From contig JAPLYZ010000010.1 of the NCBI GenBank assembly GCA_026395295.1, positions 5,678 through 69,677 of the forward strand: a stretch of 64,000 nt of DNA, written 5' to 3'. Origin of the DNA: Candidatus Staskawiczbacteria bacterium. GTDB lineage: Bacteria; Patescibacteriota; Minisyncoccia; Minisyncoccales; Staskawiczbacteraceae. The translations under genes were made by a program, and so were the position numbers. Positions 18,691-55,926 of the stretch are shown piece after piece (positions within the stretch are counted from its first letter, which is position 1; each line of letters begins with the position of its first letter). Under the pieces are notes generated by a model. The model was not told where the DNA came from and ran no database searches. It saw nothing but the letters and a program-made list of their open reading frames with translations.

Positions 18691-19185
18691 ATGATTTCTG
18701 AAAGGCAAGAAAAATTATTAAACTTTTTAATTAAAGAGTACATAGCCACAAATGAACCTGTTGGTTCTTTGTCGTTAAAAAAAGCAAGCGATTTAGATGT
18801 TTCAGCGGCAACAATAAGAAACGATTTGCAGGCTTTGACAGAAGCAGGGTATATTAAACAGCCTCACACGTCAGCAGGCAGAGTTCCTACAAAAAAAGCA
18901 TACAAATATATTGCCGATAAAATAACAATGTCCGAGACATTTTACGACGTTCGCGAAGTGAATGTCGTAAGAATGTCCATTGTGCGACAAATCAAAGAGG
19001 CTCATCAGCAACTTGAACAGGAAATGCAATCTTTAATGGAAATTTCAGGAATGCTGGAAATTTCTCACACAACCGAAAGCCACACTTTATTTAGGGCTTT
19101 AACAATTTTAGGACCCACAAGAGAAATTTGCGAAGACAACGAAGACATTATACAAAAATTATTAAAAGAATTAGAAAATTTTTAA
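18691..19185 (+). CDS. hrcA: Heat-inducible repressor HrcA, short form (N-terminal winged-helix only)
   Basis: 164 aa, versus about 340 typical from memory. LLNFLIKEYIATNEPVGS, ATIRNDLQALTEAGYIKQPHTSAGRVPT. A CIRCE-like operator lies just upstream. Confidence 0.75.
   Translation: MISERQEKLLNFLIKEYIATNEPVGSLSLKKASDLDVSAATIRNDLQALTEAGYIKQPHTSAGRVPTKKAYKYIADKITMSETFYDVREVNVVRMSIVRQIKEAHQQLEQEMQSLMEISGMLEISHTTESHTLFRALTILGPTREICEDNEDIIQKLLKELENF
18979..18989 (+). repeat. ATTGTGCGACA 11-mer, copy 1
   Basis: Exact copy inside hrcA (frame att-gtg-cga-caa). Confidence 0.95.
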
Positions 19186-19186
19186 C

Positions 19187-19696
19187 ATGACAGAAGAACC
19201 AAATGTAAATATTGGTAAATCCTTCGACGCGGCTCAGGATGAGTTGAAGGCGCTTCAACTCAAATCTGAAGAGTATCTAAATGGCTGGAAGCGTGAGCGA
19301 GCAGATTTTTTAAATTACAAAAAAGATGAAATGGAGCGAATTGGCCAGCTTGTAAAATATGCCAACGAGGAAATTATTTTAAAAATAATTCCAATTTTAG
19401 ATAATCTTTGCCTGGCGGCAAGCCACCCTTCGACGGGCTCAGGGCAGGCATTACTTAAAGGGGTGGAACAAATTAAAAAGCAGCTGGAAGATTTTTTACA
19501 AAAAGAGGGGATTGAGCCAATAGAAACAATCGGCAAGCCATTTGATCCTAATTTCCACGAAGTAGTCGAGGAAATTAGCCCTTCCGAAGCTTTAGCGAAG
19601 GAGGGCAAGCCCAATACTGTAGTGGCGGAAGTCCAGCGAGGCTACACAATGCACGGCCGAATCATCAGGGTCGCTAAGGTCAAGATATCAAAATAG
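19187..19696 (+). CDS. grpE: Nucleotide exchange factor GrpE
   Basis: 169 aa. WKRERADFLNYKK, IIPILDNL, FDPNFHEVV, RGYTMHGRIIRVAKV. Confidence 0.9.
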   Translation: MTEEPNVNIGKSFDAAQDELKALQLKSEEYLNGWKRERADFLNYKKDEMERIGQLVKYANEEIILKIIPILDNLCLAASHPSTGSGQALLKGVEQIKKQLEDFLQKEGIEPIETIGKPFDPNFHEVVEEISPSEALAKEGKPNTVVAEVQRGYTMHGRIIRVAKVKISK

Positions 19697-19703
19697 CGCT
19701 TGT

Positions 19704-19732
19704 CCGGATTTTTTGCGGTCGCAAAATTTCCG
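19704..19732. repeat. Palindromic unit with core TTTTTTGCGGTCGCAAAA, copy 1 (after grpE)
   Basis: CCGGATTTTTTGCG-gt-CGCAAAATTTCCGG. Confidence 0.8.
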
Positions 19733-19771
19733 GCCACACAAAAATCGCTAGTCTTATGCAAGGTAAATAAT

Positions 19772-20305
19772 ATGAATACAGAACAAAGACAAGAAATTCG
19801 CGAGGAAGAGCCAAAAGAAAAAATTACAACCTATACCGACGAGTATAAGGAAGGGGTCTTAAGATTCTATGATAAGCTAAGGAACGAGTTCAGGGATGTT
19901 GATTTAGGTCAATCGGGTCAGGGACCAAACAAAGCTAATCAAGAAATTGGAAAGAAAAGCGAGAATAGCGACTTTTGGGTGGCAACGAATGATGAAAACG
20001 AAGTTGTCGGAACTGCTGGTTTGGACGATTGCGGGAACGGAATTGGATATTTTAGAAGTTTGTATGTGGATAAAAGCTTAAGAGGAAAAGGGGTTGCAAA
20101 AGAACTTTTATCTGCCACGGTTAGTTTCGCCAAGGAAAAGAAGTATAAAGTTATTTTTGCCGCAACAATGCCCAAAAATACAGGAGTTCATAAATTTAAC
20201 ATCAAAAATGGTTTTCGGAAAATAGATGTCCCGCCGGCGAATTCTGAGAAGTTCCGCCCCGGCACAGTATTTTTTGAAATGGATTTAGGAGAAAAAAAAG
20301 AATAA
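19772..20305 (+). CDS. GNAT-family N-acetyltransferase
   Basis: Start at ATG 19772. Acetyl-CoA motif VDKSLRGKGVAKELL. Confidence 0.7.
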   Translation: MNTEQRQEIREEEPKEKITTYTDEYKEGVLRFYDKLRNEFRDVDLGQSGQGPNKANQEIGKKSENSDFWVATNDENEVVGTAGLDDCGNGIGYFRSLYVDKSLRGKGVAKELLSATVSFAKEKKYKVIFAATMPKNTGVHKFNIKNGFRKIDVPPANSEKFRPGTVFFEMDLGEKKE

Positions 20306-21362: not shown

Positions 21363-21426
21363 AAATAAATAAGATAATTTTATTGTGCAACATTCTGTCC
21401 CTATGCACCTATGTATAGTAACAGAT

Positions 21427-21437
21427 ATTGTGCGACA
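21427..21437 (+). repeat. ATTGTGCGACA 11-mer, copy 2
   Basis: Exact copy ending 20 nt upstream of the dnaK ATG. Forms ATTGTG-CGA-CACAAT. A 1-mismatch copy ATTGTGCAACA lies at 21382-21392. Confidence 0.95.
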
Positions 21438-21457
21438 CAATATTAAAAATAAATAAA

Positions 21458-24693: not shown

Positions 24694-24720
24694 AAAAATC
24701 CGCCAATCTGGCGGATTTTT
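24694..24720. terminator. Bidirectional terminator between tRNA-Lys and the LAGLIDADG gene
   Basis: AAAAATCCGCC-aatct-GGCGGATTTTT. Confidence 0.8.
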
Positions 24721-24725
24721 AGTTA

Positions 24726-25220
24726 CTATTTGGTTTTTGAGAAGGCCTTTGCCATTTCTAACCATTTTGGCGCTCGGGGGCGGTTTTTATATTTTGCTGA
24801 AGACTTGTGAATTTCTATTAAAGTGCACAGGTCATTTTTTTTCCAACTGGCTAAAGACTTTCCCTTATTTCTTTGGATTACCTCAACTCCTTTTGCCCAA
24901 AGTTCAAAATCTTTTTTCTTTTTGTCAGCCAGCAAATTTTTTCTGAAAAACGGCACAACCACTTCGGCAATATCGCTAATTTTTTGCACAGAGAATCTTG
25001 CCTGATCTTTGGAAACGGTAATTTCTCCGCAATCCATTTCGTTTTTTATTTTTTCCAAAATTTTAAAATCGTTTTTGGGCGAGGTAACCACAAACTGAGC
25101 TTTCCAACGGTAGTAAGTGGGGGAGTTGGTTCTTTCGTGCCGGGTGTCTTTTCTAAATTGCAAATCAAAGCAACCATCGGAATTTACTAGGTTTACTATA
25201 TTAAATTTTTCTGTTACCAT
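24726..25220 (-). CDS. Free-standing LAGLIDADG-type homing endonuclease-like protein
   Basis: 164 aa. One LAGLIDADG-like motif (NLVNSDGCF) and family-like core (ILEKIKNEMDCGEI, VVPFFRKNLLADKKKKDFELW). Confidence 0.55.
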   Translation of the reverse strand: MVTEKFNIVNLVNSDGCFDLQFRKDTRHERTNSPTYYRWKAQFVVTSPKNDFKILEKIKNEMDCGEITVSKDQARFSVQKISDIAEVVVPFFRKNLLADKKKKDFELWAKGVEVIQRNKGKSLASWKKNDLCTLIEIHKSSAKYKNRPRAPKWLEMAKAFSKTK

Positions 25221-25271
25221 AACTTTATAAAATTAGTTTTTAATTTATAGATTGATTATAGCAGATATTTA

Positions 25272-25282
25272 ATTGTGCGACA
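25272..25282 (+). repeat. ATTGTGCGACA 11-mer, copy 3
   Basis: Exact copy ending 5 nt upstream of the helicase ATG. Confidence 0.95.
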
Positions 25283-25287
25283 ACACC

Positions 25288-26601
25288 ATGAAACAAAAGG
25301 AAGCATTAGATATTCTAAAAATGGGTTACAATACTTTTTTGACAGGCCCGCCGGGAAGCGGAAAAACTTTTTTATTAAATAAATATATTGAATATCTTAG
25401 AAAAAATAATATTCCCGTTTCAATTACCGCCAGCACCGGCATTGCCGCTACCCATATGGGCGGGGTTACATTGCATTCGTGGTCTGGCCTGGGAATCAGA
25501 GAAAAGTTAGATGACTTGGAAGTAAGGCAAGTTTGCGACAAGGGATATTTAAGAAAAAGAATAAAAAACACGGGCGTTTTAATTATAGACGAGATTTCCA
25601 TGATTAAAGCTTCACAGTTTGAGGCTGTAAGCAAAATTTGCCAGTATATAAAAAGAAATATCCGACCCTTTGGCGGAATACAAGTTATTTGCTCGGGCGA
25701 TTTTTTCCAGCTGCCACCGGTGGAAAAAGAAGGCAGGGAAATAAAATTTGTTACCGAGTCAGACGTTTGGAAGCAAATGGAAATGAAAATTTGTTATTTA
25801 GACGAACAGCATAGAACAAAAGATAAAAAACTGCATAAAATTTTAAATTGCATTCGCGAAAGCAAAGCAGGGGAATCAAAAGAACTTTTGTATCAAGCGC
25901 AAAAAGTGGCAAAAGATTTAAAACGTGTTTTTACAAAACTTTACACTCACAACGTTGATGTGGACAGCATTAACTATTCTGAGCTGAACAAAATAAAAGG
26001 AAAAGAATATTATTATCAAATGGGGCTGAGAGGAAATCTTGTTGTCGCAGAGGCGTTGAAAAAAAGTTGCTTGGCGCCCGAGAAGCTAATTTTAAAAGAC
26101 GGCGCGCACGTGATGTTTATTAAAAACAATTTTGACGCAGGATATGTTAACGGAACGCAGGGGAAGATAGTTGGTTTTGGGGCGGGGGATTTGCCTATTG
26201 TCAAAACTCAAGACGGTAAAAAAATAACCGTAGCTTATGCCGACTGGACAATAGAAGAGGAAAATTTAATAGTGGCCGGAATTTCTCAAATTCCGCTAAG
26301 GTTGGCATGGGCCATTACCGTGCATAAATCACAAGGAATGAACCTTGATTCGGCCGAAATGGATCTTTCGAGATGTTTTTTAGAAGGCATGGGGTATGTT
26401 GCGCTTTCCAGATTAAGGTCATTAAAGGGTTTGCGACTGATGGGAATAAACAACCTGGCTTTTTGTGTGAATCCTCGGGCGCTGAAAATAGATAAACAAT
26501 TCAGGCTTTTTTCCAAAGAAGCCTCAGCTGAACTAAAAAAGACGCCGGCGGGCGCTGTAACCAAAAGGCAAAAACTTTTTATTAAATATTTAGGCGGCTA
26601 G
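25288..26601 (+). CDS. Pif1/RecD-family ATP-dependent DNA helicase
   Basis: Walker A GPPGSGKTF, Walker B LIIDEISM, GDFFQLPPV, AITVHKSQG, YVALSR. Start at ATG 25288. Confidence 0.85.
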   Translation: MKQKEALDILKMGYNTFLTGPPGSGKTFLLNKYIEYLRKNNIPVSITASTGIAATHMGGVTLHSWSGLGIREKLDDLEVRQVCDKGYLRKRIKNTGVLIIDEISMIKASQFEAVSKICQYIKRNIRPFGGIQVICSGDFFQLPPVEKEGREIKFVTESDVWKQMEMKICYLDEQHRTKDKKLHKILNCIRESKAGESKELLYQAQKVAKDLKRVFTKLYTHNVDVDSINYSELNKIKGKEYYYQMGLRGNLVVAEALKKSCLAPEKLILKDGAHVMFIKNNFDAGYVNGTQGKIVGFGAGDLPIVKTQDGKKITVAYADWTIEEENLIVAGISQIPLRLAWAITVHKSQGMNLDSAEMDLSRCFLEGMGYVALSRLRSLKGLRLMGINNLAFCVNPRALKIDKQFRLFSKEASAELKKTPAGAVTKRQKLFIKYLGG

Positions 26602-26616
26602 CCGTAAGGAGTTTTT

Positions 26617-26627
26617 ATTGTGCGACA
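26617..26627 (+). repeat. ATTGTGCGACA 11-mer, copy 4
   Basis: Exact copy in the 31-nt spacer between the convergent helicase and xer genes. Followed by GACAAG-N9-CTTGTC. Confidence 0.95.
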
Positions 26628-26632
26628 AGGTA

Positions 26633-27604
26633 TTATTTCTTGTCAGGATCAGAGTGGAATTGATGGTGAATGTCGCGAAGGCGTTTATTGGTTACGTGCG
26701 TGTAGATTTGAGTGGTGGCAATGTTGCTGTGGCCCAAAAACTCTTGGATGCTTCGCAGATCAACTCCCTGGTTTAACAAATCTGTGGCGTAACTGTGGCG
26801 CAGGGTATGAGGTGTTGTAAAAATTGGCACGCCTGAAAGCAGGGCGTATTTTTTTACCGTGCGCTCAATAGACCTTGGGGTAAGCCTGGCATTGGTATCG
26901 TCTTTTTTGTCGCGAAAGTTTATAAACAAGGCTTTTTGATTTGCATGTTTAATATCGTTTCTTATTTCTAAATATTTTTTGATGAAGTTTAATGCGCGTT
27001 CGGAAAAATAAACTACTCGCGGTTTTCCGCCTTTTCCAATTACGCCAAGTTCCATGTCCTTTTTATCTTTTAGATTACTAAATTGTTCAAGGTTCAACGA
27101 GGTGAGCTCAGCAATTCTAAACCCGGTTGAGAAAAAAACCTCTAAAATAGCCCTGTCGCGAGTGCTTATGTCGTCCTTGGGCTCAATGGAGGCTAAAAGC
27201 TTGCTAATTTGGTCTAAAGTAAGGAATTTAATGCTTTTTGAGCCTCTATCTGGCTTTGAGAGCGATATTTTGTCCGGGGGGATACTTTGTATGTCTTTTG
27301 CCACAAAATAGCCTAAAAAGGCCCTTAAAGCGATCAAATAGTAGTTTTGGGTGGCCTTAGATAGCAATTTTCCTGTAGCCAGACTGGGCTGTCTTGAAAG
27401 GTATAATCTATAGTCCCAAATATGCTCGGAGGTCAACTGATGGGGGAGTAAAGACGATAATTTAGCTTGGTCTAACCAATAGAAAAATTTCTGCAGATAA
27501 TTTTTATAATTCTCCTGAGTATTTTTTCTTAAACCTTTTTCAACTTCACAAAAGTCTAAAAAATCTTGCAGATGGTTTTTAATTGGTTTAGTTGAGTTTT
27601 GCAT
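26633..27604 (-). CDS. Tyrosine recombinase, XerC/XerD-like
   Basis: 323 aa. SAM-like N-domain. Catalytic region RDRAILEVFFSTGFRIAEL, HTLRHSYATDLL, LGHSNIATTQIYTHV. Confidence 0.85.
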   Translation of the reverse strand: MQNSTKPIKNHLQDFLDFCEVEKGLRKNTQENYKNYLQKFFYWLDQAKLSSLLPHQLTSEHIWDYRLYLSRQPSLATGKLLSKATQNYYLIALRAFLGYFVAKDIQSIPPDKISLSKPDRGSKSIKFLTLDQISKLLASIEPKDDISTRDRAILEVFFSTGFRIAELTSLNLEQFSNLKDKKDMELGVIGKGGKPRVVYFSERALNFIKKYLEIRNDIKHANQKALFINFRDKKDDTNARLTPRSIERTVKKYALLSGVPIFTTPHTLRHSYATDLLNQGVDLRSIQEFLGHSNIATTQIYTHVTNKRLRDIHHQFHSDPDKK

Positions 27605-27626
27605 TTTCTCCGGATTTTTAGAAGCC

Positions 27627-27674
27627 TATACTTAGTACGTCGCTTTACCTACATTTTGCGACATAGTCTGTATA
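27627..27674. promoter_or_regulatory. Large imperfect inverted repeat in the xer leader (candidate recombinase site or operator)
   Basis: Arms TATACTTAGTACGTCGC and GCGACATAGTCTGTATA, 13/17 complementary, 14-nt spacer. Overlaps the 1-mismatch motif copy ATTTTGCGACA (27653-27663). Confidence 0.4.
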
Positions 27675-27677
27675 CTA

Positions 27678-27707
27678 ATAATAGTCCACCCCTTATGCCC
27701 ATGTCAA
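27678..27707 (-). promoter_or_regulatory. Sigma-70-type promoter of the xer-like gene
   Basis: On the minus strand: TTGACA (27707-27702), 18 nt, TATTAT (27683-27678). Confidence 0.55.
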
Positions 27708-28109: not shown

Positions 28110-29605
28110 TATAATAATTTAATTGCTTCTTGGATGCGCTTTAATGTTTTTTCTCTGCCAAAAATAGCCGCGATTTCAAAAGGGCTTGGCGATGTTTTTT
28201 TGCCGGACAAAGCAGCCCGCAATGGCCAAAGTAAAAATCCTTTATTTTTTTCCGGGTAGCCTTTTTCTTTGTTAAACTCCCCTGCCCCACTTATCAACGC
28301 CTCCTCAATATTTTTAATTTCCCATGTTTTTAAATCAGATAAAATCCTGTCGCACAATAAAAGAGCCTCTTTTACATCTTCGTCCTGCATATCGCTCCAC
28401 TTCAGCAAGTCTTTTTCATAGCTAGGTTTGTCGTGAAAAAATAAATCTGACAACTCAACAATGTCTGATAGTTTTTTCATTCGGGTTTTAGAAACCTCAA
28501 TAATCTCCTGCAGTTTGTTTTGCGAAACCTGGCCGGCAACCAAAAGACCGGCTTCTTTTAAATAAGGCTCGCAAAGTTTTGTTAATTTTTCAATTGGTTT
28601 CTCGCGGATGTATAAACCATTTAAAAATTCTAAGCGCTGGATGTTAAAAATGGCTCCGGCTTTTTGTACTTTTTCTATTGAAAATTCTTTTGACAGTTGG
28701 GCCAAGGTAAACAATTCTTTTTCTGTTCCGGGGTTCCAGCCCAATAAAACCATAAAATTTACTAAAGCCTCGGGCAAATATCCCTGCCTGTGATAATCAG
28801 CCACTGCAACGTCTCCCTGCCGTTTAGAAAGCTTGCTTCGGTCAGCGTTTAACATCAATGGCAAGTGCGCATAGATGGGGTGATAAAAACCAAGCGCTTC
28901 CTGAAGCAATATCTGGCGCGGAGTGTTGGGCAAATGTTCCTCGCCCCTGATTACGTGGCTTATTTGCATTAAAAAATCATCAACCACAACTGCAAAATGA
29001 AACAAAGGGTTGTCCAAGCTTTTTGCTATAACAATATCGCCTAATAGGCTGGCATCAAACTCCACTTCTCCGCGAATTAAGTCAGTGAATTTTACTTTTT
29101 TATTTTGAACTCTAAATCTTATAACAGACTGTTTTCCTTCAGCTAAATTTTTCTGGACAACTTCTGGCGACAAATGGGCGCAACTGCCGTCGTATTTTGG
29201 CGCCAATCCCCTGCTCATTTGCTCTTGGCGTTTAGATTCCAATTCTTCCTCTGAACAAAAACAATAATATGCTTTGTCCTCCACCAAAAATTTTTCTAAA
29301 TAATTTTTGTAAATATTCAGCCTTTGAGATTGCTTGTACGGCCCGAAGTCTCCACCAATGTCCGGCCCCTCATCCCACTGAACCCCCAGCCATTTTAGCT
29401 GCTCAATAATTTCATCTGTCCACTTTTGTTCCGACCTCTTCACATCGGTGTCTTCAATGCGTAAAATAAATTTACCATTATTTTTTTTTGCAAAAAGGTA
29501 GTTGAACAAAGCAGTCCGGCTTCCGCCAACATGCAAGGGGCCAGTTGGAGAGGGCGCAAACCTCACCCTAACCGGCATACTTTTTTCTTTAATATCTTTT
29601 TTCAT
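28109..29605 (-). CDS. gltX: Glutamate--tRNA ligase
   Basis: HIGH-type motif SPTGPLHVGG and KMSKS-type KLSKR. The true start may be MPVRVRF at 29578. Confidence 0.95.
   Translation of the reverse strand: MKKDIKEKSMPVRVRFAPSPTGPLHVGGSRTALFNYLFAKKNNGKFILRIEDTDVKRSEQKWTDEIIEQLKWLGVQWDEGPDIGGDFGPYKQSQRLNIYKNYLEKFLVEDKAYYCFCSEEELESKRQEQMSRGLAPKYDGSCAHLSPEVVQKNLAEGKQSVIRFRVQNKKVKFTDLIRGEVEFDASLLGDIVIAKSLDNPLFHFAVVVDDFLMQISHVIRGEEHLPNTPRQILLQEALGFYHPIYAHLPLMLNADRSKLSKRQGDVAVADYHRQGYLPEALVNFMVLLGWNPGTEKELFTLAQLSKEFSIEKVQKAGAIFNIQRLEFLNGLYIREKPIEKLTKLCEPYLKEAGLLVAGQVSQNKLQEIIEVSKTRMKKLSDIVELSDLFFHDKPSYEKDLLKWSDMQDEDVKEALLLCDRILSDLKTWEIKNIEEALISGAGEFNKEKGYPEKNKGFLLWPLRAALSGKKTSPSPFEIAAIFGREKTLKRIQEAIKLL
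28348..28358 (-). repeat. ATTGTGCGACA 11-mer, copy 5
   Basis: Exact copy on the minus strand inside gltX (frame ttg-tgc-gac). Confidence 0.95.
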
Positions 29606-38217: not shown

Positions 38218-38228
38218 TGTCGCACAAT
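38218..38228 (-). repeat. ATTGTGCGACA 11-mer, copy 6
   Basis: Exact copy on the minus strand between the uppS stop and the orphan-ORF promoter. Confidence 0.95.
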
Positions 38229-45109: not shown

Positions 45110-47605
45110 TTATTTTTTGGGCGGGATGGGTTGGCTGGAAGAAATTGGAGGCTGAGCTGGCGGAATGTCCACAAAAGAACGCTGGGCAATTTCCTGCTCA
45201 ACAACATCTTTTGCCCGCGAATATTTTAACTTTGATATTTTTTTAATAGCGGCAATAATTTCCGGTTTTCCTTTTGGAGGAGGCAGTGTATTCATCTTAA
45301 ACGGCGTTGAAATTTTATTGTTTATCATCATTTTTATCAAAACCGTGAAGTTGTCTAAGTTCACCAAATCAAACCTTGAAAATCCGGGCTCAAATTGTTT
45401 TTCCAAATTTTCAGCGTCTTCAGCTCCAATGCGAAATGCGCCAATTGTGCCAACGTTGCCCAAAACCGCGTCGCGAATTTCCTGCTTTAACTGAGGCATA
45501 TATTGGTGAGCCATTATCAAATTGAGTTTATATTTTCTTGCCTCAGATAAAATTGTGGAAATTGAATCAGTTGTAAAATTTTGAAACTCGTCAATGTACA
45601 AATAAAAATCTGTTCTTTGGTCTTCTGCAATTCTTGCCCGCCTCATTGCCGCCATTTGTATTTTTGAAACTAAAATCAAACCCAGTAAAGAGCTGTTTAC
45701 CTCGCCGGTTAAACCCTTGGACAAATTTGCCAAAAAGATTTTTTTCTTATCCATTACATCTGCCAAATCAAAACCCGAGTGCGACTGACCGATGATATTT
45801 CGCATCATCTCGTTTTCAATAAACCTGCCAAGCTTTGAAACAACATAGCCCAACATGTCCGACCTGGTGGAACCTGTTGTTTGTGCCCATTCTTTTGTCC
45901 AAAAAGACCGAACAATTGGGTCAGAAACTTTTGCCATTCTTTGTTGTAAAAACGCCGGATCGGTAAACATTTTTGGAATTTCAACCAAAGTTCCCGGGTT
46001 ATCTTTATCTGCCATTAAGGCCAGCATGGCGTTTCTCATATAATGCTCAAACATTGGGCCAATAATTTCCGGCGGAAAAAGTTTCATAAATATGGCAATC
46101 ATTTCCTGAACCGCAAAATCTTTCTGTTCCGGCGAATCGTACTCTAACATGTTCAAGCCGCACGGCCTTTCAATATCCGACGGATCAAAAAGCACAACAT
46201 CATCAATCCTATCCTTTGGTATCATTGCTAAAACATGGTCAATTAATTCCCCGTGCGGGTCAACAATTGCCACGCCTTCACCATTTGCAATGTCTTGAGC
46301 TATCATACTTTCTAAAAACCAAGATTTACCAACACCGGTTTGTCCTATAATATAAAAATGCCTTCTTCTGTCTTTTCTGTCAGCAAAATAAACTTTTCTC
46401 TCTTCGTTTCTGTAAGAGACTTTTCCTATGCATATCTGCCCTTTTTCCGGCAAGTCTGCCGGCGGAGGCGATGACACAGACTTTGCGGCTTTAATATATG
46501 GGGTTTCAATGTAATGTGTAGGGAAATGATAAACGCTGGCCAATTCCTCCAAATTCAAAACATTGGCTTGTTTTTCGTTGAAATTTCTAAAACTAAAATC
46601 GTAAGCAAATTTCTGCAGTTCTTTGCCTCGAACTTCTTTAACTTCCAAATTGTTTATTGCCGATAGCGAAAACTGACTGAATGCCGAAGTTAAATGATTT
46701 AAAATTTCTTCTGCTCTGCCTTCTGACTGGGCCGATGCCACAACTCTTATGTTCACTTCAAATGGTTGTTTTTGAATTTTGCTTTGGATTGCATCGTAAC
46801 CCTTCTGGTCGATCCCCTGCTCCTTATCAACACTTTGAAACTCTATTTCTTTTCTCTTTGAGTCCATGGGTCCCCTGACGAAAAGCTCGTCTATTAACTC
46901 CATCAAGTCTCCCAATCCCCATCCATAAGCTCTTTCTACCGCAATTTTTACAGATTTTCCTTCTCTGATTTTTTTTAAGGCCTTCTCGCCTGCTTTTCTC
47001 AAGTTTAATTTAGACAACGGCCTAATTATTACCTGGACTGCCCCGCCTTCGTTAGCTGAAATTTTGCTCAAATTATTTGTTACCAATGCCAAGGGATCTG
47101 TTTCCAGTGTTTGATAGGTGCTAATTGGAAAAAGGTAGCTTTCGGAAAGCTTTAAATACGCAGCGGCGTTTGTTCCTTGCGGTTCAAAAATTGTATAATC
47201 TTGCGGAACCTTATCAACCACTGCGTTAGGATAAACACCCTGCACATATTTTTCGAAAACCGACTCCAAATATTTAGGAACTGCAACGTAAAAAGAAATG
47301 TCTGAACTTCCTATTTGAGAAGCAATTTCAAAAGCGCAACAAGGCGGAGTTTGAAACACGCTGCGTTTTTTCAAATATAAAAAGTTGGCGAAGACTTGCT
47401 CCATTTGGGCAATCATTAGTTTTTCCTCCTTTTGCTGTTCGCCTTCTTTCTTAGGAGAGTGCTGGGGCATCATCACCAAAAACAAAACCATTTCCAATCC
47501 TCCAAAGACGGAATTTTTTTCGTTTGTTTCAGCGTTCAAAACAAAAATAAAAGCCAAAACAATCAGTAAAAAAACCAAAATTAATCCGGGTATAATAATC
47601 GCCAT
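45110..47605 (-). CDS. Membrane-anchored VirD4/TraD/TraG-like (T4SS coupling-protein-like) P-loop ATPase
   Basis: 831 aa. Two N-terminal TM helices, Walker A GQTGVGKS, Walker B-like FYLYIDEFQNF, LIMAHQY. Confidence 0.6.
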   Translation of the reverse strand: MAIIIPGLILVFLLIVLAFIFVLNAETNEKNSVFGGLEMVLFLVMMPQHSPKKEGEQQKEEKLMIAQMEQVFANFLYLKKRSVFQTPPCCAFEIASQIGSSDISFYVAVPKYLESVFEKYVQGVYPNAVVDKVPQDYTIFEPQGTNAAAYLKLSESYLFPISTYQTLETDPLALVTNNLSKISANEGGAVQVIIRPLSKLNLRKAGEKALKKIREGKSVKIAVERAYGWGLGDLMELIDELFVRGPMDSKRKEIEFQSVDKEQGIDQKGYDAIQSKIQKQPFEVNIRVVASAQSEGRAEEILNHLTSAFSQFSLSAINNLEVKEVRGKELQKFAYDFSFRNFNEKQANVLNLEELASVYHFPTHYIETPYIKAAKSVSSPPPADLPEKGQICIGKVSYRNEERKVYFADRKDRRRHFYIIGQTGVGKSWFLESMIAQDIANGEGVAIVDPHGELIDHVLAMIPKDRIDDVVLFDPSDIERPCGLNMLEYDSPEQKDFAVQEMIAIFMKLFPPEIIGPMFEHYMRNAMLALMADKDNPGTLVEIPKMFTDPAFLQQRMAKVSDPIVRSFWTKEWAQTTGSTRSDMLGYVVSKLGRFIENEMMRNIIGQSHSGFDLADVMDKKKIFLANLSKGLTGEVNSSLLGLILVSKIQMAAMRRARIAEDQRTDFYLYIDEFQNFTTDSISTILSEARKYKLNLIMAHQYMPQLKQEIRDAVLGNVGTIGAFRIGAEDAENLEKQFEPGFSRFDLVNLDNFTVLIKMMINNKISTPFKMNTLPPPKGKPEIIAAIKKISKLKYSRAKDVVEQEIAQRSFVDIPPAQPPISSSQPIPPKK

Positions 47606-48745: not shown

Positions 48746-50005
48746 CTATTCGTACCGCAAGGCTTCAATGGGGTCTAGCTTTGCCGCAGACCTTGCCGGC
48801 ATAACTCCGAAAGATATTCCAATGGCAGCTGAAACCCCAACCGCAATTATAATAGAATACAACGGCACTGAAAAAATCCATGCCAGCCCGTTATAACTTG
48901 CTATTAAAGAAACCAACCAGCTCATAACAGAACCCAAGATAATTCCAAGTATTCCGCCCAAGACTGTAACCAAAATTGATTCCACCAAAAATTCTCTTGA
49001 AATATCAGAACTTCTTGCGCCCAACGCTTTTTTTAGGCCAATCTCAGCTGTCCTCTCGGTAACAACCACATACATAATATTCATTATGCCAACTCCACCC
49101 ACAATAAGCGAAATTGACGCAATGGCAATCAACAAAATGGTAATGCCATTAAAAATTGTGTTGAAGGTTTCCAAAGCTTGCGCTTGAGTGGTTACCATAA
49201 AATCATCTTTATTTGGGTTTGTAATGCTGTGGAGACTTCTCATGGTACTGCGGATTAATTCTGCTGTGGCGTCGCCCAGGTTTGTGTCTTTCAACTGCAC
49301 AACGCCGATGGTTATATAATTGACTCCCAGCATTTTTTTCTGAGCCGTGACAAGTGGCATATATAAACTGTCGTCAGCCCCTCCTGCGGAAAAAGATCCT
49401 TGCGCATTATAAACCCCTATAACCTGGAAATTTAAATTTCCAACTCTTATCAACTTCCCCACTGGCTCATCCTGCCCGAATAAGTCGTTGGCTAAATTGC
49501 TTCCCAAAATTGCCACCTGGACTGCCCCGGCATCTTCTGTCTGCGTAAAAAATCTGCCTTTTTTCAAGGTGTGTTTATCAATAGAAAACATATCAGCTCC
49601 AACTCCAAAATAAATAGAGTTTTTAGCGTTATTCCTGTAATTTACCACCGAAAGACCGGTAACCATGCCATAGGCTCCGGAAACATTATTTAATTTTTTG
49701 AGCGCAGTCAGGTCGGATAATTTGAATGTTGTAATCTGCACAGTAGAAGCCGCCCTGCTAAGGTCGGCTGATGCCGGGTTGTTATTGGCTAAATTCTTTG
49801 TTGTAGGAGGAACTTTTGTTTCCACAAAAAGGGTGTCTGTTCCCCACGCCGCCAGTTCGGCGTCTATCAAGCTTCTAAAACCTGCGCCGGCGGACAAAAC
49901 CGTAATCACTGTTGCAATTCCAATGACAATTCCCAGAGTCGTTAAAACCGTCCTTATAGGGTTGGACTTTAACGCTCTTATCGATTGCTGAAAAGAATTA
50001 ACCAT
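48746..50005 (-). CDS. ABC transporter permease (MacB/FtsX type), subunit 2
   Basis: 419 aa, same architecture as 7263-8495. GGVGIMNIMYVVVTERTAEIGLKKALGA, C-terminal DPIEALRYE. Confidence 0.9.
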   Translation of the reverse strand: MVNSFQQSIRALKSNPIRTVLTTLGIVIGIATVITVLSAGAGFRSLIDAELAAWGTDTLFVETKVPPTTKNLANNNPASADLSRAASTVQITTFKLSDLTALKKLNNVSGAYGMVTGLSVVNYRNNAKNSIYFGVGADMFSIDKHTLKKGRFFTQTEDAGAVQVAILGSNLANDLFGQDEPVGKLIRVGNLNFQVIGVYNAQGSFSAGGADDSLYMPLVTAQKKMLGVNYITIGVVQLKDTNLGDATAELIRSTMRSLHSITNPNKDDFMVTTQAQALETFNTIFNGITILLIAIASISLIVGGVGIMNIMYVVVTERTAEIGLKKALGARSSDISREFLVESILVTVLGGILGIILGSVMSWLVSLIASYNGLAWIFSVPLYSIIIAVGVSAAIGISFGVMPARSAAKLDPIEALRYE

Positions 50006-50015
50006 GATTTTATAA

Positions 50016-51287
50016 CTATTCGTAGCGAAGCGCGTCGATTGGGTTTAATTTTGACGCTTTTAAGGCCGGGTACAGGCCAAAAATAACGCCTGTTAAAATT
50101 GATACGCCAACAGCCAACAGAACAGAGGTTATAGAAACTACGAATGCCCAGTCATATCCCAAATAACGCATCAACAGGGTTATAAGATAAGAAATTAAAA
50201 TTCCCACAATAATTCCGACAATTCCGCCCAGAAAAGTCAGAGTCCCGGCTTCCAGCAAAAATTGCTTCATAATTGCCACATTGCTGGCTCCGACCGCTTT
50301 TCTTAAACCAATTTCTCTGGTGCGCTCAGCCACTGTTGCCAACATAATATTCAAAATTCCGATTCCCCCAACCACCAAGGCAATCGCGGCCATGGCAGTT
50401 AAAAATAATCTTAAAGCATCGGTTATTGTGCTTAAAATGCTGATTGCGTCGGCAATATTTCTTACCGTATAATCAGCGTCAACATCTTTTTGGATACGGT
50501 GGCGTTGATTTATTACATTTTTTACATCGGCAATTGTCTGATCTATGTTGTTTGACGAATCTACCTTTATGTCTATTCCACGCAAATAATGAATTCCAAG
50601 AATTTGTTGTTGGCCAATTGTCAGAGGTAAATAAACTTGGTCATCAAAATCCAAAAAAATAGCGCTGCCCTTTTTTTCCATAACTCCTATAACACGCAAA
50701 GGAATTCCGCCGGCTTGTTCTTGCGAAGCGCTTCTGACTTTTACAACCTGGCCAATGGGGTCAACTCCTGTATTGTTGAATATTTCCGAGGCAACAGTGT
50801 CCCCCAAAATCACAACATTAGCCGCCCCTTCGCCCTGCCTTTGGCTGAAAAATTGTCCGTTTTTTATAGAAGTATTTAAAACATTGGGAAAATTATAATC
50901 TGTGCCAATGAAATTTGTGTCTACTGTTTTGTTTTGCCAGGTCACAGAAACAGACCCCATAACTAAACTCGCCACTGCCTCGGCGTGCGGAACCTGGTTT
51001 TTATTTCTTAGGGCTTCTGCGTCTTCATTGACCAGGGTTGTGATTGTAATTCCAAATGCCTGCGCCGGAGGCCCCTTCTCGTTGCTCTTACCGGGTTGGA
51101 CAGACAAAAGATTAGAACCCAATTTTGTTATTTGCCCCAAAATCATGCTTTGCGCCCCTGCTCCCAAAGCAATTATAGTTATCACTCCGGCAACTCCAAT
51201 AACAATTCCCAGAATAGTCAAAAACGACCTGCCTTTCCTGGCAAGCAATGTCCTAAAAACTAATTTTATGGTTCCCAAAAAATCCAT
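50016..51287 (-). CDS. ABC transporter permease (MacB/FtsX type), subunit 1
   Basis: 423 aa. GGIGILNIMLATVAERTREIGLRKAVGA, C-terminal NPIDALRYE. Confidence 0.9.
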   Translation of the reverse strand: MDFLGTIKLVFRTLLARKGRSFLTILGIVIGVAGVITIIALGAGAQSMILGQITKLGSNLLSVQPGKSNEKGPPAQAFGITITTLVNEDAEALRNKNQVPHAEAVASLVMGSVSVTWQNKTVDTNFIGTDYNFPNVLNTSIKNGQFFSQRQGEGAANVVILGDTVASEIFNNTGVDPIGQVVKVRSASQEQAGGIPLRVIGVMEKKGSAIFLDFDDQVYLPLTIGQQQILGIHYLRGIDIKVDSSNNIDQTIADVKNVINQRHRIQKDVDADYTVRNIADAISILSTITDALRLFLTAMAAIALVVGGIGILNIMLATVAERTREIGLRKAVGASNVAIMKQFLLEAGTLTFLGGIVGIIVGILISYLITLLMRYLGYDWAFVVSITSVLLAVGVSILTGVIFGLYPALKASKLNPIDALRYE

Positions 51288-51290
51288 AAT

Positions 51291-51301
51291 TGTCGCACAA
51301 T
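51291..51301 (-). repeat. ATTGTGCGACA 11-mer, copy 7
   Basis: Exact copy on the minus strand in the 18-nt ATPase-permease spacer, ending 3 nt upstream of the permease ATG. Confidence 0.95.
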
Positions 51302-51305
51302 GGAA

Positions 51306-52022
51306 TTATTTTACCAAATCTTTTTCGGCGCTGGCAATAGTACGTTTTATCACCTTTTCATCGGAAATAATTTGGCCGTCTTTTATGCGGATAATTCTTT
51401 TGGCGTGGTTTGCTGTGTCGGTTTCGTGAGTGACCAAAATAATTGTGTGGCCCTGGTTGTTCAATTTCTGTAAGATATGCATTACTATATTTCCAGATTT
51501 TGAATCCAGGTTTCCGGTTGGCTCGTCGGCAAAAATTACAGCCGGATTGTTAACCAAAGCCCTTGCAATTGCCACGCGCTGTTTTTCTCCTCCGGAAATT
51601 TGGTTTGTAAAATATTCAAGGCGATGCGACATTCCAACCGACTCTAAAGCTTTTTCCGCCAGTTTGTCAAAATCTTTATTTTTACTGTAAACCAACGGCA
51701 ATTTTACATTGTCTAAAACAGTTGTGCGAGCCAGTAAGTTAAAAGATTGAAAGACAAAACCAACTCTTTCGTTTCTTAACTTTGCCAAATAGTCGTCATC
51801 AAAATTTTTTGTGTCTTTTCCTTCAAAGTTATACAAGCCGGAAGTCGGTCGGTCTAAAAAACTTAGAATGTGCATTAAGGTTGATTTGCCAGATCCCGAC
51901 GGTCCCATAATTGCCACAAATTCTCCTTCGTTTATCTTAAACCTGACGCTTCGCAAAACCTGCGTGACAACATCGTCATTAACATAATCTTTTTTTAAAT
52001 TTTCGACTTCAATAAGCGCCAT
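51306..52022 (-). CDS. ABC transporter ATP-binding protein (MacB/LolD type)
   Basis: Walker [10 protein letters not shown], signature [15 protein letters not shown], Walker [12 protein letters not shown]. Confidence 0.95.
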
Positions 52023-52032
52023 GGTTATATTT

Positions 52033-53559
52033 TTATGGTTTAATGTATGTTACAATTTCTTGGCCGTCTTTTAATCCTGAAACAATTTCCACCAACCCTC
52101 CGTCTGCCTGAATTCCAGTTTGAACCTGAACCTCGTGATATATTTTCATTTTTTCATTATCTATAACCCTGACATACTGCTTGTTATTTTTATTTATTAT
52201 TGCGGTTGACGGCACAGCCAGAATGTTATTTTTTTGGGAAATCAGAATTGTCATATTGGCCGTCATACCCGGTTTAATTCCAGGGACATTGTCAAAGCTT
52301 CCCTTAACTAAATAATCAACAACTCCGGAAATTACGGTTGAGGCAGGGTTTATTGTAAGCACTTTTCCGGAAAAATGCTGATCTGGCCCAAGCGCATCAA
52401 AAGTATAATCAATTGACTGGCCTATTTGCAAAGACGCCACGTTGGCCTCGCTGACATCGGCTTCTGTGTGCAAATTTCCAATATCTTGCAAGACAACCGC
52501 AACTTTTGTCGGGGTTGCCTGCTCGCCAACTTTTATATTAACCTGCGTAATTGTCCCGGGCAATGGAGCTGTTATTACTGAATTATTCAAAATAACCTGG
52601 GCCGAATCAACCTGACCTTGAGCAGAAAGCACTTGCGCTCCTGCCAAGTCAATGTCTTCCTGCCTGGGCTTTGCTTTCTTAGCTGACAAATTATCCTTTG
52701 CTGTTTGAAGCGCTACTTTATAAGAAGCAATACTGCTTTGTAAGCTATTAATACTTGTTAGGGCCGCGCTAACCGCGGTTTTTTGTGCGTCTAAAGATGC
52801 CTTATCGGTTACAGAAACTTTGGAATAGTAAATTCCCTGGTCGCACTGGTCTCGTATAATTTGAAGCGAACCAAAAGTAGAATTTAAATCATCTGCTAAA
52901 TTAGAGATTGCCGAGTCGGTGGTGTTAGCATCAGTCGCCCGGCTTACGCTGGATTCTGCGTTTGCCAGCTTATCGTTTATATTATTTTTATTATTCTGAA
53001 CTCTAATGCTTTGCTGATCGCTTGTTGAAAAATTACTATTTTGCACACTCACTACCGAAGCATAGGCATTGTAAACCGCTGTGTAGGCGCTGTTCAAAAC
53101 GCTCTGCGCGCTGTTATATGTGTTGCCCAAATTAACCTCGGCAGATGCCACGGCATTCTGCAAAACTTGTACCTCATTTTGAGTAGGACCATTTATCAGC
53201 TTTTCGTAATTTGCTTTGGCTTGGGCCAATGTTCCTTGTGCCGAAGTTAAAGAAGCAAGCGCAGAAGACTGGTCAAGCGACGCCAAAACTTGTCCCTGTT
53301 TCACGCTGTCCCCTTCAGTAACTAAAACTCTTTTAATAATTCCGCTCCCTTGAAAACTTAAATCAAGATCAGTGGCGCTGACAACCTGCCCTGTAGACAA
53401 AACTGTTTCCTGCAAATTTTGTTTTGTTGCAAACCCGGTTTGTATGGAATTGGCGTTATTTTTTTGGCCGAAAACAAAAAAACCAATTATAATTATAATT
53501 ATCAAAATCGCAATGATCCAGATATTTCTTTTCCTCTTCAAAAATTTTGGTAACTTCAT
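52033..53559 (-). CDS. HlyD/MacA-family adaptor-like protein
   Basis: 508 aa. N-terminal TM, long coiled coil, ITAPLPGTIT, IKPGMTANMTI. Confidence 0.8.
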   Translation of the reverse strand: MKLPKFLKRKRNIWIIAILIIIIIIGFFVFGQKNNANSIQTGFATKQNLQETVLSTGQVVSATDLDLSFQGSGIIKRVLVTEGDSVKQGQVLASLDQSSALASLTSAQGTLAQAKANYEKLINGPTQNEVQVLQNAVASAEVNLGNTYNSAQSVLNSAYTAVYNAYASVVSVQNSNFSTSDQQSIRVQNNKNNINDKLANAESSVSRATDANTTDSAISNLADDLNSTFGSLQIIRDQCDQGIYYSKVSVTDKASLDAQKTAVSAALTSINSLQSSIASYKVALQTAKDNLSAKKAKPRQEDIDLAGAQVLSAQGQVDSAQVILNNSVITAPLPGTITQVNIKVGEQATPTKVAVVLQDIGNLHTEADVSEANVASLQIGQSIDYTFDALGPDQHFSGKVLTINPASTVISGVVDYLVKGSFDNVPGIKPGMTANMTILISQKNNILAVPSTAIINKNNKQYVRVIDNEKMKIYHEVQVQTGIQADGGLVEIVSGLKDGQEIVTYIKP

Positions 53560-53681: not shown

Positions 53682-54371
53682 TTAATTAAATTTTTTAGCT
53701 CCATCTAACCATTTTTTAAATAAGCAATCTTGGCTGTGCTCAGGCGGAGTCGGCTCTCTTAAACATTTGACTGCATCCTGAAAAATTGCGTAAATGTCTG
53801 ACGGGTTGGTTTCTATCTCCACTATTTCTTTGCGAAACGGCAGGCGGTCAATGAATCCCCTGCTCTTGTCTACGATATAAAAAGCCAAATAGCCTTTCCG
53901 CGGAGTTTTATAACCGTTCTTCTCCATTAAAAATGTGTAAGTGTCTAACTGCAACTGGAATCTGTCATAAACATTTGCCGCGGTGCTTCCTGTTGATTTA
54001 TAGTCTAACGGAGCAATTTTAGAATCGCTGAATTCCAAAACATCATCAACCGCGCCAAATAACGTTGCTTGAAGAACCTCGTCAAAATATCTGATGCCGG
54101 CAAGATTGTTTCTCCATTGGTTCAACAACTTCTGATTTGGAAAAAGTCGCGCCTTTATGCCATTTTCTTTCAGCAACGGATGCGGTAAATTCTTCGCCCG
54201 GTAAGTGTCAAACTCTTCTTTTAGCAAACTGTCCACCGCCGAGTTCAAAGCATAAGGGTATGGCGGAGGCCTTTTTATTCCCAAATTCTTATCCAGCCAA
54301 AAGCAATGCGGACATTCCAAAAACAAATTCAGAGAGTTGGGTGATAATTGTATTGGTTTTTCGTTAGCCAT
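53682..54371 (-). CDS. PD-(D/E)XK nuclease superfamily protein (Cas4/RecB-like)
   Basis: 229 aa. N-terminal CPHCFW cysteine pair, D...DYK core (APLDYKS), C-terminal Cys. Confidence 0.55.
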   Translation of the reverse strand: MANEKPIQLSPNSLNLFLECPHCFWLDKNLGIKRPPPYPYALNSAVDSLLKEEFDTYRAKNLPHPLLKENGIKARLFPNQKLLNQWRNNLAGIRYFDEVLQATLFGAVDDVLEFSDSKIAPLDYKSTGSTAANVYDRFQLQLDTYTFLMEKNGYKTPRKGYLAFYIVDKSRGFIDRLPFRKEIVEIETNPSDIYAIFQDAVKCLREPTPPEHSQDCLFKKWLDGAKKFN

Positions 54372-54396
54372 ATTCTATTATATCAAATTTTTAGAA

Positions 54397-54429
54397 TAAA
54401 AAAAGTCCCGACAGTTCACACTGTGGGAC
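54397..54429 (-). terminator. Terminator after purC-purE
   Basis: On the minus strand: GTCCCACAG-tgtgaa-CTGTCGGGAC, then TTTTTTT. Confidence 0.75.
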
Positions 54430-54452
54430 ATTTAAATATCCAAGGCAGCAGG

Positions 54453-55793
54453 CTAGCTGAGCGGAATCACATTGACCGCGCGCTCTTCCTGTTTCAGTCG
54501 CAACACGGCATATAGCGCAGGATTCCTGCCGGCAAGGATTTTCAGCGCGGCCAAAACAGCGAGCTTTGGATCAGCAACAACCATCAGAGGAACTTCGCTG
54601 GGCATGCGTAACGACGAGCTTGCATCCGCCGGATCAGGAATAGTGCTTATCACCGGCACCATGCTGTTCGCCGCACACGTTGGTCCCAAACCATTACTCC
54701 TGCCAACGTTTGTCACGATGACCGGGTCAGGCAGAGGCTTGGAATCACTCAAGCCTTTGCAACCAAACTCCAAATCCTGCAGCGTTAACAACGACTGCAT
54801 CGGCTTCTTGTGCGCAGAATTGACCAAGAAAGCTATTTGTACGCCATGCCGCCCCTGGGCGAAAGCCGAAAAAGCAGTCGCAAAAACTTCTGTATTGTCA
54901 TTGGGCGAACCGCTCCAAATAACCAGCGTTTGGTTGGGAATCCGAAAAAATCCGGTGAGAACCGCCGTCCGGCGAAGGATTTGTTCCATAACGGTAAGCC
55001 CTTCGTTCTCGCGATAAGCTTGCTTGGACAACTTCTGCCCGTCCTTCATCACACGCCACGAATCGGCATCAATGACATCACCGATGTATAGCTTGCCGTC
55101 AAGCCAGCCAAACTCAATCTTCCAGTCCAACAGATCGTAGCCAAGGATTTTCCACGCTTTCTCCACGACCAAAAATGCGTGAACGTTCATCGTGGCCATG
55201 CCCGCCATGACTTCCTTCCCGTTACCTCGCGGAAAAATCTCGGTGAGCAGGATCTTCAAAAACGGCTCTTGCGTCGCCAACGGAATGTGCGCGTTATAGA
55301 GCCATACCTCGCCGCCCACGACTTTCATATACGGGTCGTCGTAAGACTCACCGGGCTTGCTTCCCGGGAACTTGTGGCCGTTGAACCCGCAACCGTGAGT
55401 CTTCAGGTAAAATTCCGTCACAATGCTCGGAAATACCGTGCCGTTGGGAACGTGTGGGTTCCGTTGAAGGTAGGAGCCAGTCGCGACACGGCGCGCTACA
55501 ACTTCCAGTGGAAGCATTTCCAAACTCGGCGCCAAAAATTCTTTGGGACCGAGCTGTCTCGCGAATGCGACTGGCAAGCCGCATTGCTTGAGCAACGAGA
55601 AAACGTTGCAGGTAGTTGTGGTGGACAGCGCGGCTTTACCCTTGATAACATCGTGCTTTTCTCCATCGCCGGCCGTGATGTCATCCTTAGATTCTACGGC
55701 AACCATGTTCGGCGATTCAAGAACCTGCCAAATTATCTTGGTTTTGCCCTCTCCGAGCTGACTGCCCTTAGTGACTGTGTCTGATGTTGTCAT
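54453..55793 (-). CDS. purC-purE: Bifunctional SAICAR synthetase (N-terminal, PurC) / class II AIR carboxylase (C-terminal, PurE), PAICS-type fusion
   Basis: 446 aa. N-terminal LGEGKTKIIWQV, SKDDITAGDG, VARRVATGSYLQRNP, DADSWRV. C-terminal GSPND, NSAHKKP, GRSNGLGPTCAANSMVPVIS. High G+C. Confidence 0.8.
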   Translation of the reverse strand: MTTSDTVTKGSQLGEGKTKIIWQVLESPNMVAVESKDDITAGDGEKHDVIKGKAALSTTTTCNVFSLLKQCGLPVAFARQLGPKEFLAPSLEMLPLEVVARRVATGSYLQRNPHVPNGTVFPSIVTEFYLKTHGCGFNGHKFPGSKPGESYDDPYMKVVGGEVWLYNAHIPLATQEPFLKILLTEIFPRGNGKEVMAGMATMNVHAFLVVEKAWKILGYDLLDWKIEFGWLDGKLYIGDVIDADSWRVMKDGQKLSKQAYRENEGLTVMEQILRRTAVLTGFFRIPNQTLVIWSGSPNDNTEVFATAFSAFAQGRHGVQIAFLVNSAHKKPMQSLLTLQDLEFGCKGLSDSKPLPDPVIVTNVGRSNGLGPTCAANSMVPVISTIPDPADASSSLRMPSEVPLMVVADPKLAVLAALKILAGRNPALYAVLRLKQEERAVNVIPLS

Positions 55794-55915
55794 ACTGATT
55801 ATTACCTTCTTAATCGGCTCTACTGAGCCTTGTTTTCAACGAGCGTATCGCGATGCCTTGAAAAGGCACCTGATTATACAAGACTACAAAAATTTGCAAT
55901 TTCTGTCAACTTACT

Positions 55916-55926
55916 TGTCGCACAAT
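55916..55926 (-). repeat. ATTGTGCGACA 11-mer, copy 8
   Basis: Exact copy on the minus strand between the purB terminator and the purC-purE promoter region (TTGACA at 55909-55904). Confidence 0.95.

Follow-up and report, generated by a model that had tools for sequence, protein, structure and literature searches.

The DNA analysed here is a stretch of 64,000 nucleotides from a Candidatus Staskawiczbacteria bacterium (contig JAPLYZ010000010.1; hereafter the window), and our subject is an 11-nucleotide word, ATTGTGCGACA (in pattern form TTTTATTRTGCGACA), that recurs on both sides of a Xer-family tyrosine recombinase gene (xer) and the putative dif site upstream of it. The closest relative of the DnaK encoded in the window (87% identity) is from Candidatus Staskawiczbacteria, an uncultivated group of the candidate phyla radiation (CPR/Paceibacterota). 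According to Pfam, the left side of the window carries genes for an HrcA-like winged helix-turn-helix protein, GrpE, a GNAT protein, a DUF5655 protein, DnaK and DnaJ, followed by tRNA-Lys, a free-standing LAGLIDADG gene on the minus strand and a PIF1/RecD2-like helicase gene. To the right of xer lie a gene for a small membrane protein, gltX, murG, ftsW and a Mur-ligase fusion, and then uppS, pyrG, a MacB-type ABC transporter, purine synthesis genes and ClpC.

The word occurred eight times exactly in the window, where 0.03 copies would be expected by chance, and none of 100 dinucleotide-preserving shuffles contained more than one copy. The positions and strands of these eight copies, as listed in an initial annotation of the DNA, were confirmed (Table 1), and so were the two one-mismatch copies that it listed (ATTGTGCAACA at 21382 and ATTTTGCGACA at 27653), the T before five and the A after five of the eight copies, and the distances of 3, 5 and 20 nt to start codons. 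Rfam and tRNA scans of the window returned three tRNAs and no match at the words.

Table 1. Copies of the word and associated features (position 1 is the first letter of the window)
Feature	Position	Strand	Context
Word copy	18979..18989	+	Inside short HrcA-like gene, codons ATT GTG CGA CAA
One-mismatch copy ATTGTGCAACA	21382..21392	+	In direct tandem with the copy at 21427; starts 45 nt apart
Word copy	21427..21437	+	Between variable DUF5655 gene and dnaK
Word copy	25272..25282	+	Between LAGLIDADG gene (-) and PIF1/RecD2-like helicase gene (+); left border of the inserted helicase gene
PIF1/RecD2-like helicase gene	25288..26601	+	Variable block flanked exactly by two words; 0-5 other genes in its place in relatives
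Word copy	26617..26627	+	16 nt past helicase stop codon, beyond xer 3' end; position kept in most relatives
Xer-family tyrosine recombinase gene	26633..27604	-	Pfam Phage_integrase and SAM-like N-terminal domains
Putative dif	27637..27664	-	xer strand ATGTCGCAAAA TGTAGG TAAAGCGACGT; 28 bp, 11+6+11
Promoter-like TTGACA-N18-TATTAT	27678..27707	-	Upstream of xer; read from sequence, conserved in relatives
Word copy	28348..28358	-	3' part of gltX; first copy across dif from 26617
Word copy	38218..38228	-	12 nt past uppS stop codon; 7 nt upstream of a TTGACA-N18-TATAAT promoter; right breakpoint of dif-centred inversion
Word copy	51291..51301	-	4 nt past ABC ATPase stop codon, 3 nt before permease start codon
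Word copy	55916..55926	-	Past terminator-like hairpin 3' of lyase gene; upstream of SAICAR synthetase / AIR carboxylase (purC/E-like) fusion gene

Relatives were sampled as 80 metagenomic loci centred on the recombinase gene (725 kb in total). The exact word was present 173 times in these loci against 0.35 copies expected, and one-mismatch forms were present 121 times against 11 expected, with ATTATGCGACA and ATTTTGCGACA as the commonest variants. The search in relatives that the initial annotation had proposed thus showed the word to be lineage-wide and far above random. Among 80 DnaK loci of Patescibacteria, the exact word was confined to Staskawiczbacteria loci, with none in about 75 loci from other Patescibacteria. 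A sequence logo from 203 non-redundant contexts widened the motif to an asymmetric site of about 16 nt, TTTT-ATT(G/A)TGCGACA-a(a)(t), with the 11-mer, which has 3 G and 2 C, as its invariant core. We found no report of the word in the literature, where its literal matches were coincidences with primers.

The dif-like site and the Xer recombinase

The 28-bp block upstream of xer has a 6-bp centre between 11-bp arms that form an imperfect inverted repeat, with an outer GTCGC/GCGAC symmetry, and it was conserved in 41 distinct loci. In the window, GC skew turns from positive to negative at about 28 kb, the point at which the genes converge as well, and the sign of the skew changed at the dif-xer module in all 21 loci that had 8 kb on both sides. 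Because of its arm structure, its conservation and the skew switch at the module, we read the block at 27637-27664 as a putative dif site at the replication terminus. Since the promoter-like sequence lies upstream of the block, this dif would be situated inside the xer leader; in relatives, too, the block is found just 3' of a TTGACA-N17/18-TATTAT promoter. In loci with a recombinase that is 58-62% identical, the same place is occupied by AGTTCGCATAA TTATAG TTAAGAGAACT, which resembles E. coli dif (GGTGCGCATAA TGTATA TTATGTTAAAT).

The promoter-side arm of the block is the variant ATTTTGCGACA (27653-27663, plus strand), which in nearly all loci precedes the xer start codon by about 50 nt and which matches the word at 10 of 11 positions. 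By our estimate, the chance that a 28-bp site holds an 11-mer with at most one mismatch from the word is about 3e-4. The other common variant, ATTATGCGACA, shares CGCATAAT in its reverse complement with the XerC arm of E. coli dif. These matches lend sequence support to one proposal of the initial annotation, namely that the word is a half-site for the adjacent Xer-like recombinase. A second arm at 6-8 bp from the word, as a dif site has, was absent: the logo showed only the T-run there, and the copies in relatives included no close inverted pairs or palindromic two-word sites. Direct tandem pairs, on the other hand, were common, with a peak of start-to-start spacing at 24-25 bp. The recombinase scored about equally with models of XerD, XerC and XerA, in all cases below the equivalog cut-offs, and has more than 120 homologues at 79-92% identity. 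We presume that it is the reader of both dif and the words.

Several observations were made on this module in passing. In seven loci (L126, L135, L136, L142, L147, L155 and L156) the xer leader contains an insert of 70-130 nt between dif and the xer start codon. Its first hairpin is formed by pairing with dif's right arm (GGTAAACCGTCG...CGACGGTTTACC) and a second one by CCAAGATT...AATCTTGG; a structured leader is one possibility for this insert, a small inserted element another. Four loci (L157-L160), with a recombinase that is 65% identical, have neither a dif-like block upstream of the gene nor an exact word and share only ATTGTGCGACC, which may point to a paralogue or else to a lineage whose site differs. 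A viral contig (L175, positions 4372-4391; IMGVR_UViG_3300032053_000105) carries 20 nt identical to the left arm and centre of dif (TGTCGCAAAATGTAGGTAAA). With seven matches to the 17-mer query, this is probably due to chance, although it could be an attP site. Phage or IMEX (integrative mobile element exploiting Xer) carriers were also sought in IMG/VR with the dif core and the extended word, and discarded as candidates since the matches stayed at chance level; one further IMG/VR contig (L184) has two word copies, both in a coding repeat.

Orientation and density of the word around dif

For polarity counts, the 80 loci were oriented by the recombinase gene. Upstream of it, 83 copies of the word were on the plus strand and none on the minus strand, and downstream 127 copies were on the minus strand and 7 on the plus strand. 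Altogether, 222 of 230 non-redundant copies were directed toward dif. Gene direction is a real confound here, since 92% of coding bases are dif-directed as well. However, 43 non-redundant copies pointed to dif without any co-oriented neighbour or host gene, against two for the reverse case. The separation was clearest in the interval from the 3' end of xer to the LAGLIDADG gene, where both genes are opposed to the words; one word was even antisense within xer. Many of these 43 copies are at homologous positions and they are therefore not 43 independent events, but they nevertheless lead us to reject the description in the initial annotation by which all copies share the strand of the local genes. 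That description held for the window and failed in relatives.

Two comparisons had been suggested for the polarity: against gene direction the outcome favoured direction toward dif (43 versus 2 copies), and with GC skew the polarity shares its switch point at the 28-bp dif-like site, in the window as well as in relatives. As to geometry, the idea of a polar word directed at a terminus near 27 kb therefore stood, with this site as the point of reversal; it did not stand as far as it implied a short G-rich motif of the Chi type or of the FtsK-orienting polar sequences (KOPS). That the dispersed word is a single-arm mimic of dif, and that it is arranged convergently around dif across a whole CPR family, is well supported.

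Word density was 0.83 per kb in the kilobase to the left of dif and 1.36 per kb in the first kilobase beyond the xer stop codon, compared to 0.1-0.3 per kb at 2-10 kb from dif and about 0.07 per kb at 30-55 kb, where all copies were still correctly oriented. On contigs in which xer as well as a distant gene could be placed, copies were found at 13, 16 and 22 kb, at 35 kb (on a 738-kb contig), and at 39 and 47 kb (on a 336-kb contig), all of them directed to dif. The five Staskawiczbacteria loci without xer held a single copy in 86.5 kb. These data cover about 55 kb on each side of dif plus a few unplaced loci, and the array may be restricted to the terminus or be part of a genome-wide gradient.

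The seven wrong-way copies to the right of xer (L096 10358, L135 11109, L144 3237, L146 1262, L152 11657, L148 11060 and L129 10566) are each located behind a C/T-rich tract of about 35 nt (ctc.c.tcccct...), and four of them are in rcWord-N56-69-Word pairs just past the xer stop codon. Together with the tract, these copies look like a distinct element.

Genes, variable blocks and inversion

About 20% of the words were inside genes, 41 of them sense and 6 antisense, with conserved intragenic positions in gltX, the MurL-type ligase gene, murD and the HrcA-like gene. In the HrcA-like gene of two relatives (L010 and L011), the word was present at the same codon position despite a protein identity of about 50%. 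For the gltX region, the word was 4-8 nt past the gltX stop codon in most relatives, as opposed to inside gltX in the window.

Across relatives the conserved backbone reads murG - gltX - word(+) - g120 - dif - xer - word(-) - [0 to 5 variable genes] - word(-) - LAGLIDADG - uppS - L27 - pyrG. The variable genes between xer and LAGLIDADG encode, among the loci, a PIF1/RecD2-like helicase, GmrSD, Fic/RhuM, SelR, LemA/TPM, a HATPase_c protein, GAF-ANTAR and MetK, with words at the block borders, and loci that are 'empty' at this place retain one word or a close pair. When related loci were compared, a word was found at the edge of 12 out of 14 large indels. Indels at 78% identity or more mostly begin at words, where homology also ends for trivial reasons, and clean presence/absence alleles bounded by words were not found at 90% identity or more. 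Some gene families occurred on both sides of dif, which inversions explain equally well. Intervals of an accessory or defence-type hot spot were seen at 25288-26601 in the window, and at 11130-18065 (L193), 11063-14840 (L198) and 11113-15332 (L169) in relatives.

Compared to at least 20 relatives, the window is inverted around dif and xer from about 24.7 to 38.2 kb (24700-38230, from the LAGLIDADG gene to a 209-aa open reading frame), and the word at 38218 marks the right breakpoint. The ancestral order was dnaK-dnaJ ... murD-ftsW-murG-gltX-g120-dif-xer-[variable]-LAGLIDADG-uppS-L27-pyrG. Inversions that span dif automatically keep the convergent polarity, and part of the symmetry of the array may therefore be historical and not selected.

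The LAGLIDADG gene (24726-25220, minus strand) was conserved beside xer in 28 loci and has an extended -10 promoter, TGGTATAAT, on its own strand. The word upstream of it (region to 25282) lies over the -35 position on the opposite strand, and at this promoter it could be an operator. The gene g120, which encodes the conserved 120-aa neighbour of dif, was considered as an RTP-like terminator protein and dismissed: the product is a membrane or secreted protein with an N-terminal hydrophobic segment, without a DNA-binding signature and without a Pfam match. A heat-shock operator at dnaK was discarded as well, because the dnaK copies are not conserved (the copy upstream of dnaK is absent in seven related loci). 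The HrcA-like protein (18691-19185) is 164 aa long and consists of the winged-helix domain only, and no inverted repeat of the CIRCE type (controlling inverted repeat of chaperone expression) was visible upstream of dnaK, either in the window (21363-21457) or in seven relatives.

Possible roles of the word array

We wondered what an array of this kind might do. Our preferred reading, to which we give about an even chance, is that the words are single-arm Xer binding sites that together form a convergent, terminus-marking array; Xer binding is inferred from the similarity of the word to the dif arm and from the adjacency of xer. The word would copy the XerC-type arm of the dif of this lineage, and each lone arm would bind one Xer monomer in a fixed orientation without by itself allowing strand exchange of the dif type. 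The array could concentrate Xer at dif, and, once loaded, it could serve as a direction-dependent stop, unloading or guidance signal for machines that track along DNA. Candidates for such machines would be SMC (structural maintenance of chromosomes) complexes, as for XerD at the XerD-only dif-like sites (XDS) of Bacillus, or an FtsK-type pump, as for KOPS. As a side effect or a second use, gene blocks might be inserted and inverted around dif with the word sites as the joints. We favour an oriented terminus marker because the polarity is independent of the local genes, the array reaches over tens of kb through regions of housekeeping genes, essential genes retain copies, and XDS offer a precedent.

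Karaboja et al. reportedly described XDS in B. subtilis and S. aureus in 2021. As far as the available accounts describe them, XDS are sites in the terminus of Bacillus and Staphylococcus at which XerD unloads SMC (PMC9226527, PMC11894783, PMC10945525), and they are built from a full XerD arm, a degenerate centre of 5-6 bp plus the 5 bp that lie innermost in a second, inverted arm (PMC9226527). By these accounts, words and XDS are alike in being extra copies of a recombinase-binding dif arm around the terminus that are used (for the words presumably) without recombination. They differ in that the words consist of a single XerC-type arm plus a T-run in a single-Xer system, without the two-part architecture of XDS. 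Dispersed recombinase-only dif-like sites are thus already known, and what appears to be new is a mirror-symmetric array of lone arms that points to dif; compared by description, and as far as we found, its strict convergent polarity and steep peak beside dif have no counterpart in XDS. The module itself resembles difSL-xerS of streptococci and lactococci, in which a single Xer-type gene at the terminus has dif immediately upstream, in or next to its promoter (PMC1914069). However, no dispersed half-sites are reported in that paper, the site measures 31 bp as opposed to 28 bp here, and the present recombinase scores as XerD/XerC/XerA-like and not XerS-like. Our literature search on dif or Xer in Patescibacteria found no paper.

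A number of results weigh against the marker reading. The B. subtilis XDS architecture is absent, as there was no conservation upstream of the T-run in the 203-context logo, and CACAA, exact or with one mismatch, showed no enrichment at any of the offsets between -25 and -5, so that there is no partial second arm of the XDS type. The conserved T-run is a possible crossover (overlap) region. Extra genes between gltX and g120 are bracketed by plus-strand words, which means that bracketing is found on both sides of dif. Among the 121 intergenic copies whose upstream gene is co-oriented, 43 begin 2-7 nt past the stop codon of that gene (mode 4 nt), which models of a recombination site or of a transcript end predict equally. 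Neither an FtsK nor an SMC gene was seen in the fetched DNA, which comprises the window and the loci and not whole genomes. Finally, many of the counts stem from positions that are homologous between related genomes and do not represent independent events.

Several of these results would be expected if an integron-like or pdif-like cassette platform used the words as its recombination sites. Strand exchange by Xer would then take place where T-run and word meet, between a word in the chromosome and the word of a circular block, and blocks bounded by direct word repeats would accumulate by xer and dif; polarity would be a by-product of a fixed cassette orientation and of dif-centred inversions. 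The up to five unrelated genes with words at their borders between the 3' end of xer and LAGLIDADG, the 'empty' loci with their one word or close pair, the bracketed genes between gltX and g120, the words at the edges of large indels (12 of 14) and at the right breakpoint of the window inversion, and the adjacent recombinase gene are all consistent with this possibility, as is a T-run that is conserved as an overlap region would be. The usual location of the word 2-7 nt past a stop codon is reminiscent of attC sites. In pdif sites of Acinetobacter plasmids, IMEX and attC arrays, repeats of a site likewise bracket variable blocks by a tyrosine recombinase gene and follow soon after a stop codon; their sites, however, have two arms or can be folded, the orientation of pdif alternates, and none of these systems forms a mirror-symmetric array around dif. 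To our knowledge, tyrosine-recombinase sites require two arms, and the word has neither a second arm nor a foldable partner. Moreover, copies are found 13-47 kb from xer amid housekeeping genes and within conserved essential genes (gltX, MurL, murD and the HrcA-like gene), where sense copies are more in keeping with a spaced signal along the chromosome than with the border of a cassette. Some variable genes lack a word of their own (L193), the same cassette was not encountered in two different contexts, and near-identical contigs showed no clean word-to-word deletion. We regard such a platform as possible but unlikely. It is not mutually exclusive with terminus marking, and similarly tentative is a combination in which one Xer would read the mirror-symmetric array of lone arms, both to define the terminus domain (replacing KOPS/FtsK, MatP/matS or XDS systems) and to capture or invert gene blocks there.

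The likeness to the dif arm could also be incidental, with an FtsK/SpoIIIE gamma domain and not Xer as the reader of the word. The polarity that switches at dif, the density of about one copy per 5-15 kb within tens of kb of dif that rises toward it, and the tolerance of sense, leading-strand copies inside genes are also what a translocase-orienting motif would show, that is, a motif like KOPS or the SpoIIIE recognition sequences (SRS), read by the gamma domain of FtsK/SpoIIIE; KOPS of E. coli have a comparable density. Yet the G-rich motifs of KOPS and SRS have 7-8 nt (8 nt in KOPS, which are present genome-wide and read by the FtsK gamma domain), whereas the site described here spans 11-16 nt, is not G-rich, mimics a dif arm at 10 of 11 positions (a chance of about 3e-4) and drops to about one copy per 86 kb in loci without xer. 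With no FtsK gene in the fetched DNA, and only a VirD4/TraD-like protein from the FtsK/HerA superfamily in the window, we consider this quite unlikely. A replication fork trap, which forks could enter toward dif and could not leave, would resemble Tus-Ter or RTP-Ter in its two opposed groups of asymmetric sites, which here flank the skew switch and are concentrated near it, and the close tandem pairs (starts mostly 24-25 bp apart) agree with such a trap. Those systems, however, depend on dedicated terminator proteins and about ten widely spaced sites without resemblance to dif. No Tus- or RTP-like protein was found in our data (the small gene by dif encodes a membrane or secreted protein), the number of sites per kb beside dif is far above that of the fork traps we know of, and permissive and non-permissive faces are not assignable from sequence, which makes a trap very unlikely. 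If the word were instead a signal at gene ends, such as an element of the 3' untranslated region, a factor-dependent terminator or an operator, polarity would follow the genes, and the 92% of dif-directed coding bases would make any gene-linked signal look polar. Its frequent start shortly after a stop codon (43 of 121 copies), the broad distance to the next start codon (median 82 nt) and the two window copies located 6-7 nt upstream of a TTGACA -35 box are in line with this. It is contradicted by the 43 non-redundant copies without a co-oriented gene (in the interval from xer to LAGLIDADG, and one antisense in xer), and it does not explain the gradient around dif or the near-absence elsewhere. 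Also, a separate intrinsic terminator follows some copies (the terminator hairpin, where present, comes after the word), Rfam gave no match, and the minimum free energy of the word plus 45 nt equalled that of controls (p = 0.55), on which ground we abandoned an RNA hairpin or terminator. A gene-end signal, including the 5' or intercistronic RNA signal listed in the initial annotation, is hence highly improbable, given the copies antisense to every neighbour and the lack of excess RNA structure. The same list included a DNA-uptake signal. A conserved, lineage-specific and over-represented word would suit a naturally competent bacterium from a lineage that is thought to scavenge DNA. DNA uptake sequences and uptake signal sequences (DUS/USS) are dense (roughly one per kb), genome-wide and essentially independent of orientation. 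The word is far less dense, it matches a dif arm, and because it is strictly polar, graded around the terminus and rare without xer, uptake is not supported and has a negligible probability.

If the preferred reading of an oriented terminus marker is true, the array would be a third known way to write 'this way to dif', after KOPS and matS/XDS, by means of the recombinase's own half-site, and it would bear on how the terminus is marked and managed in tiny CPR genomes with reduced cell-cycle machinery. Should the sites also mediate capture of gene blocks, this would explain the terminus as a hot spot for defence and accessory genes, and an ultra-small CPR genome would possess an integron-like gene-capture platform built directly on the machinery for chromosome dimer resolution.

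Two further features of the window may be mentioned. An 831-aa VirD4/TraD/HerA-like coupling ATPase, the sole protein of the FtsK/HerA superfamily in the window, is encoded amid housekeeping genes (45110-47605, minus strand). MacB-type ABC export operons are present at 4827-8495 and 48746-53559, and in the right-hand one, where two permease genes stand in tandem, a word sits exactly between the first of them and the ATPase gene.

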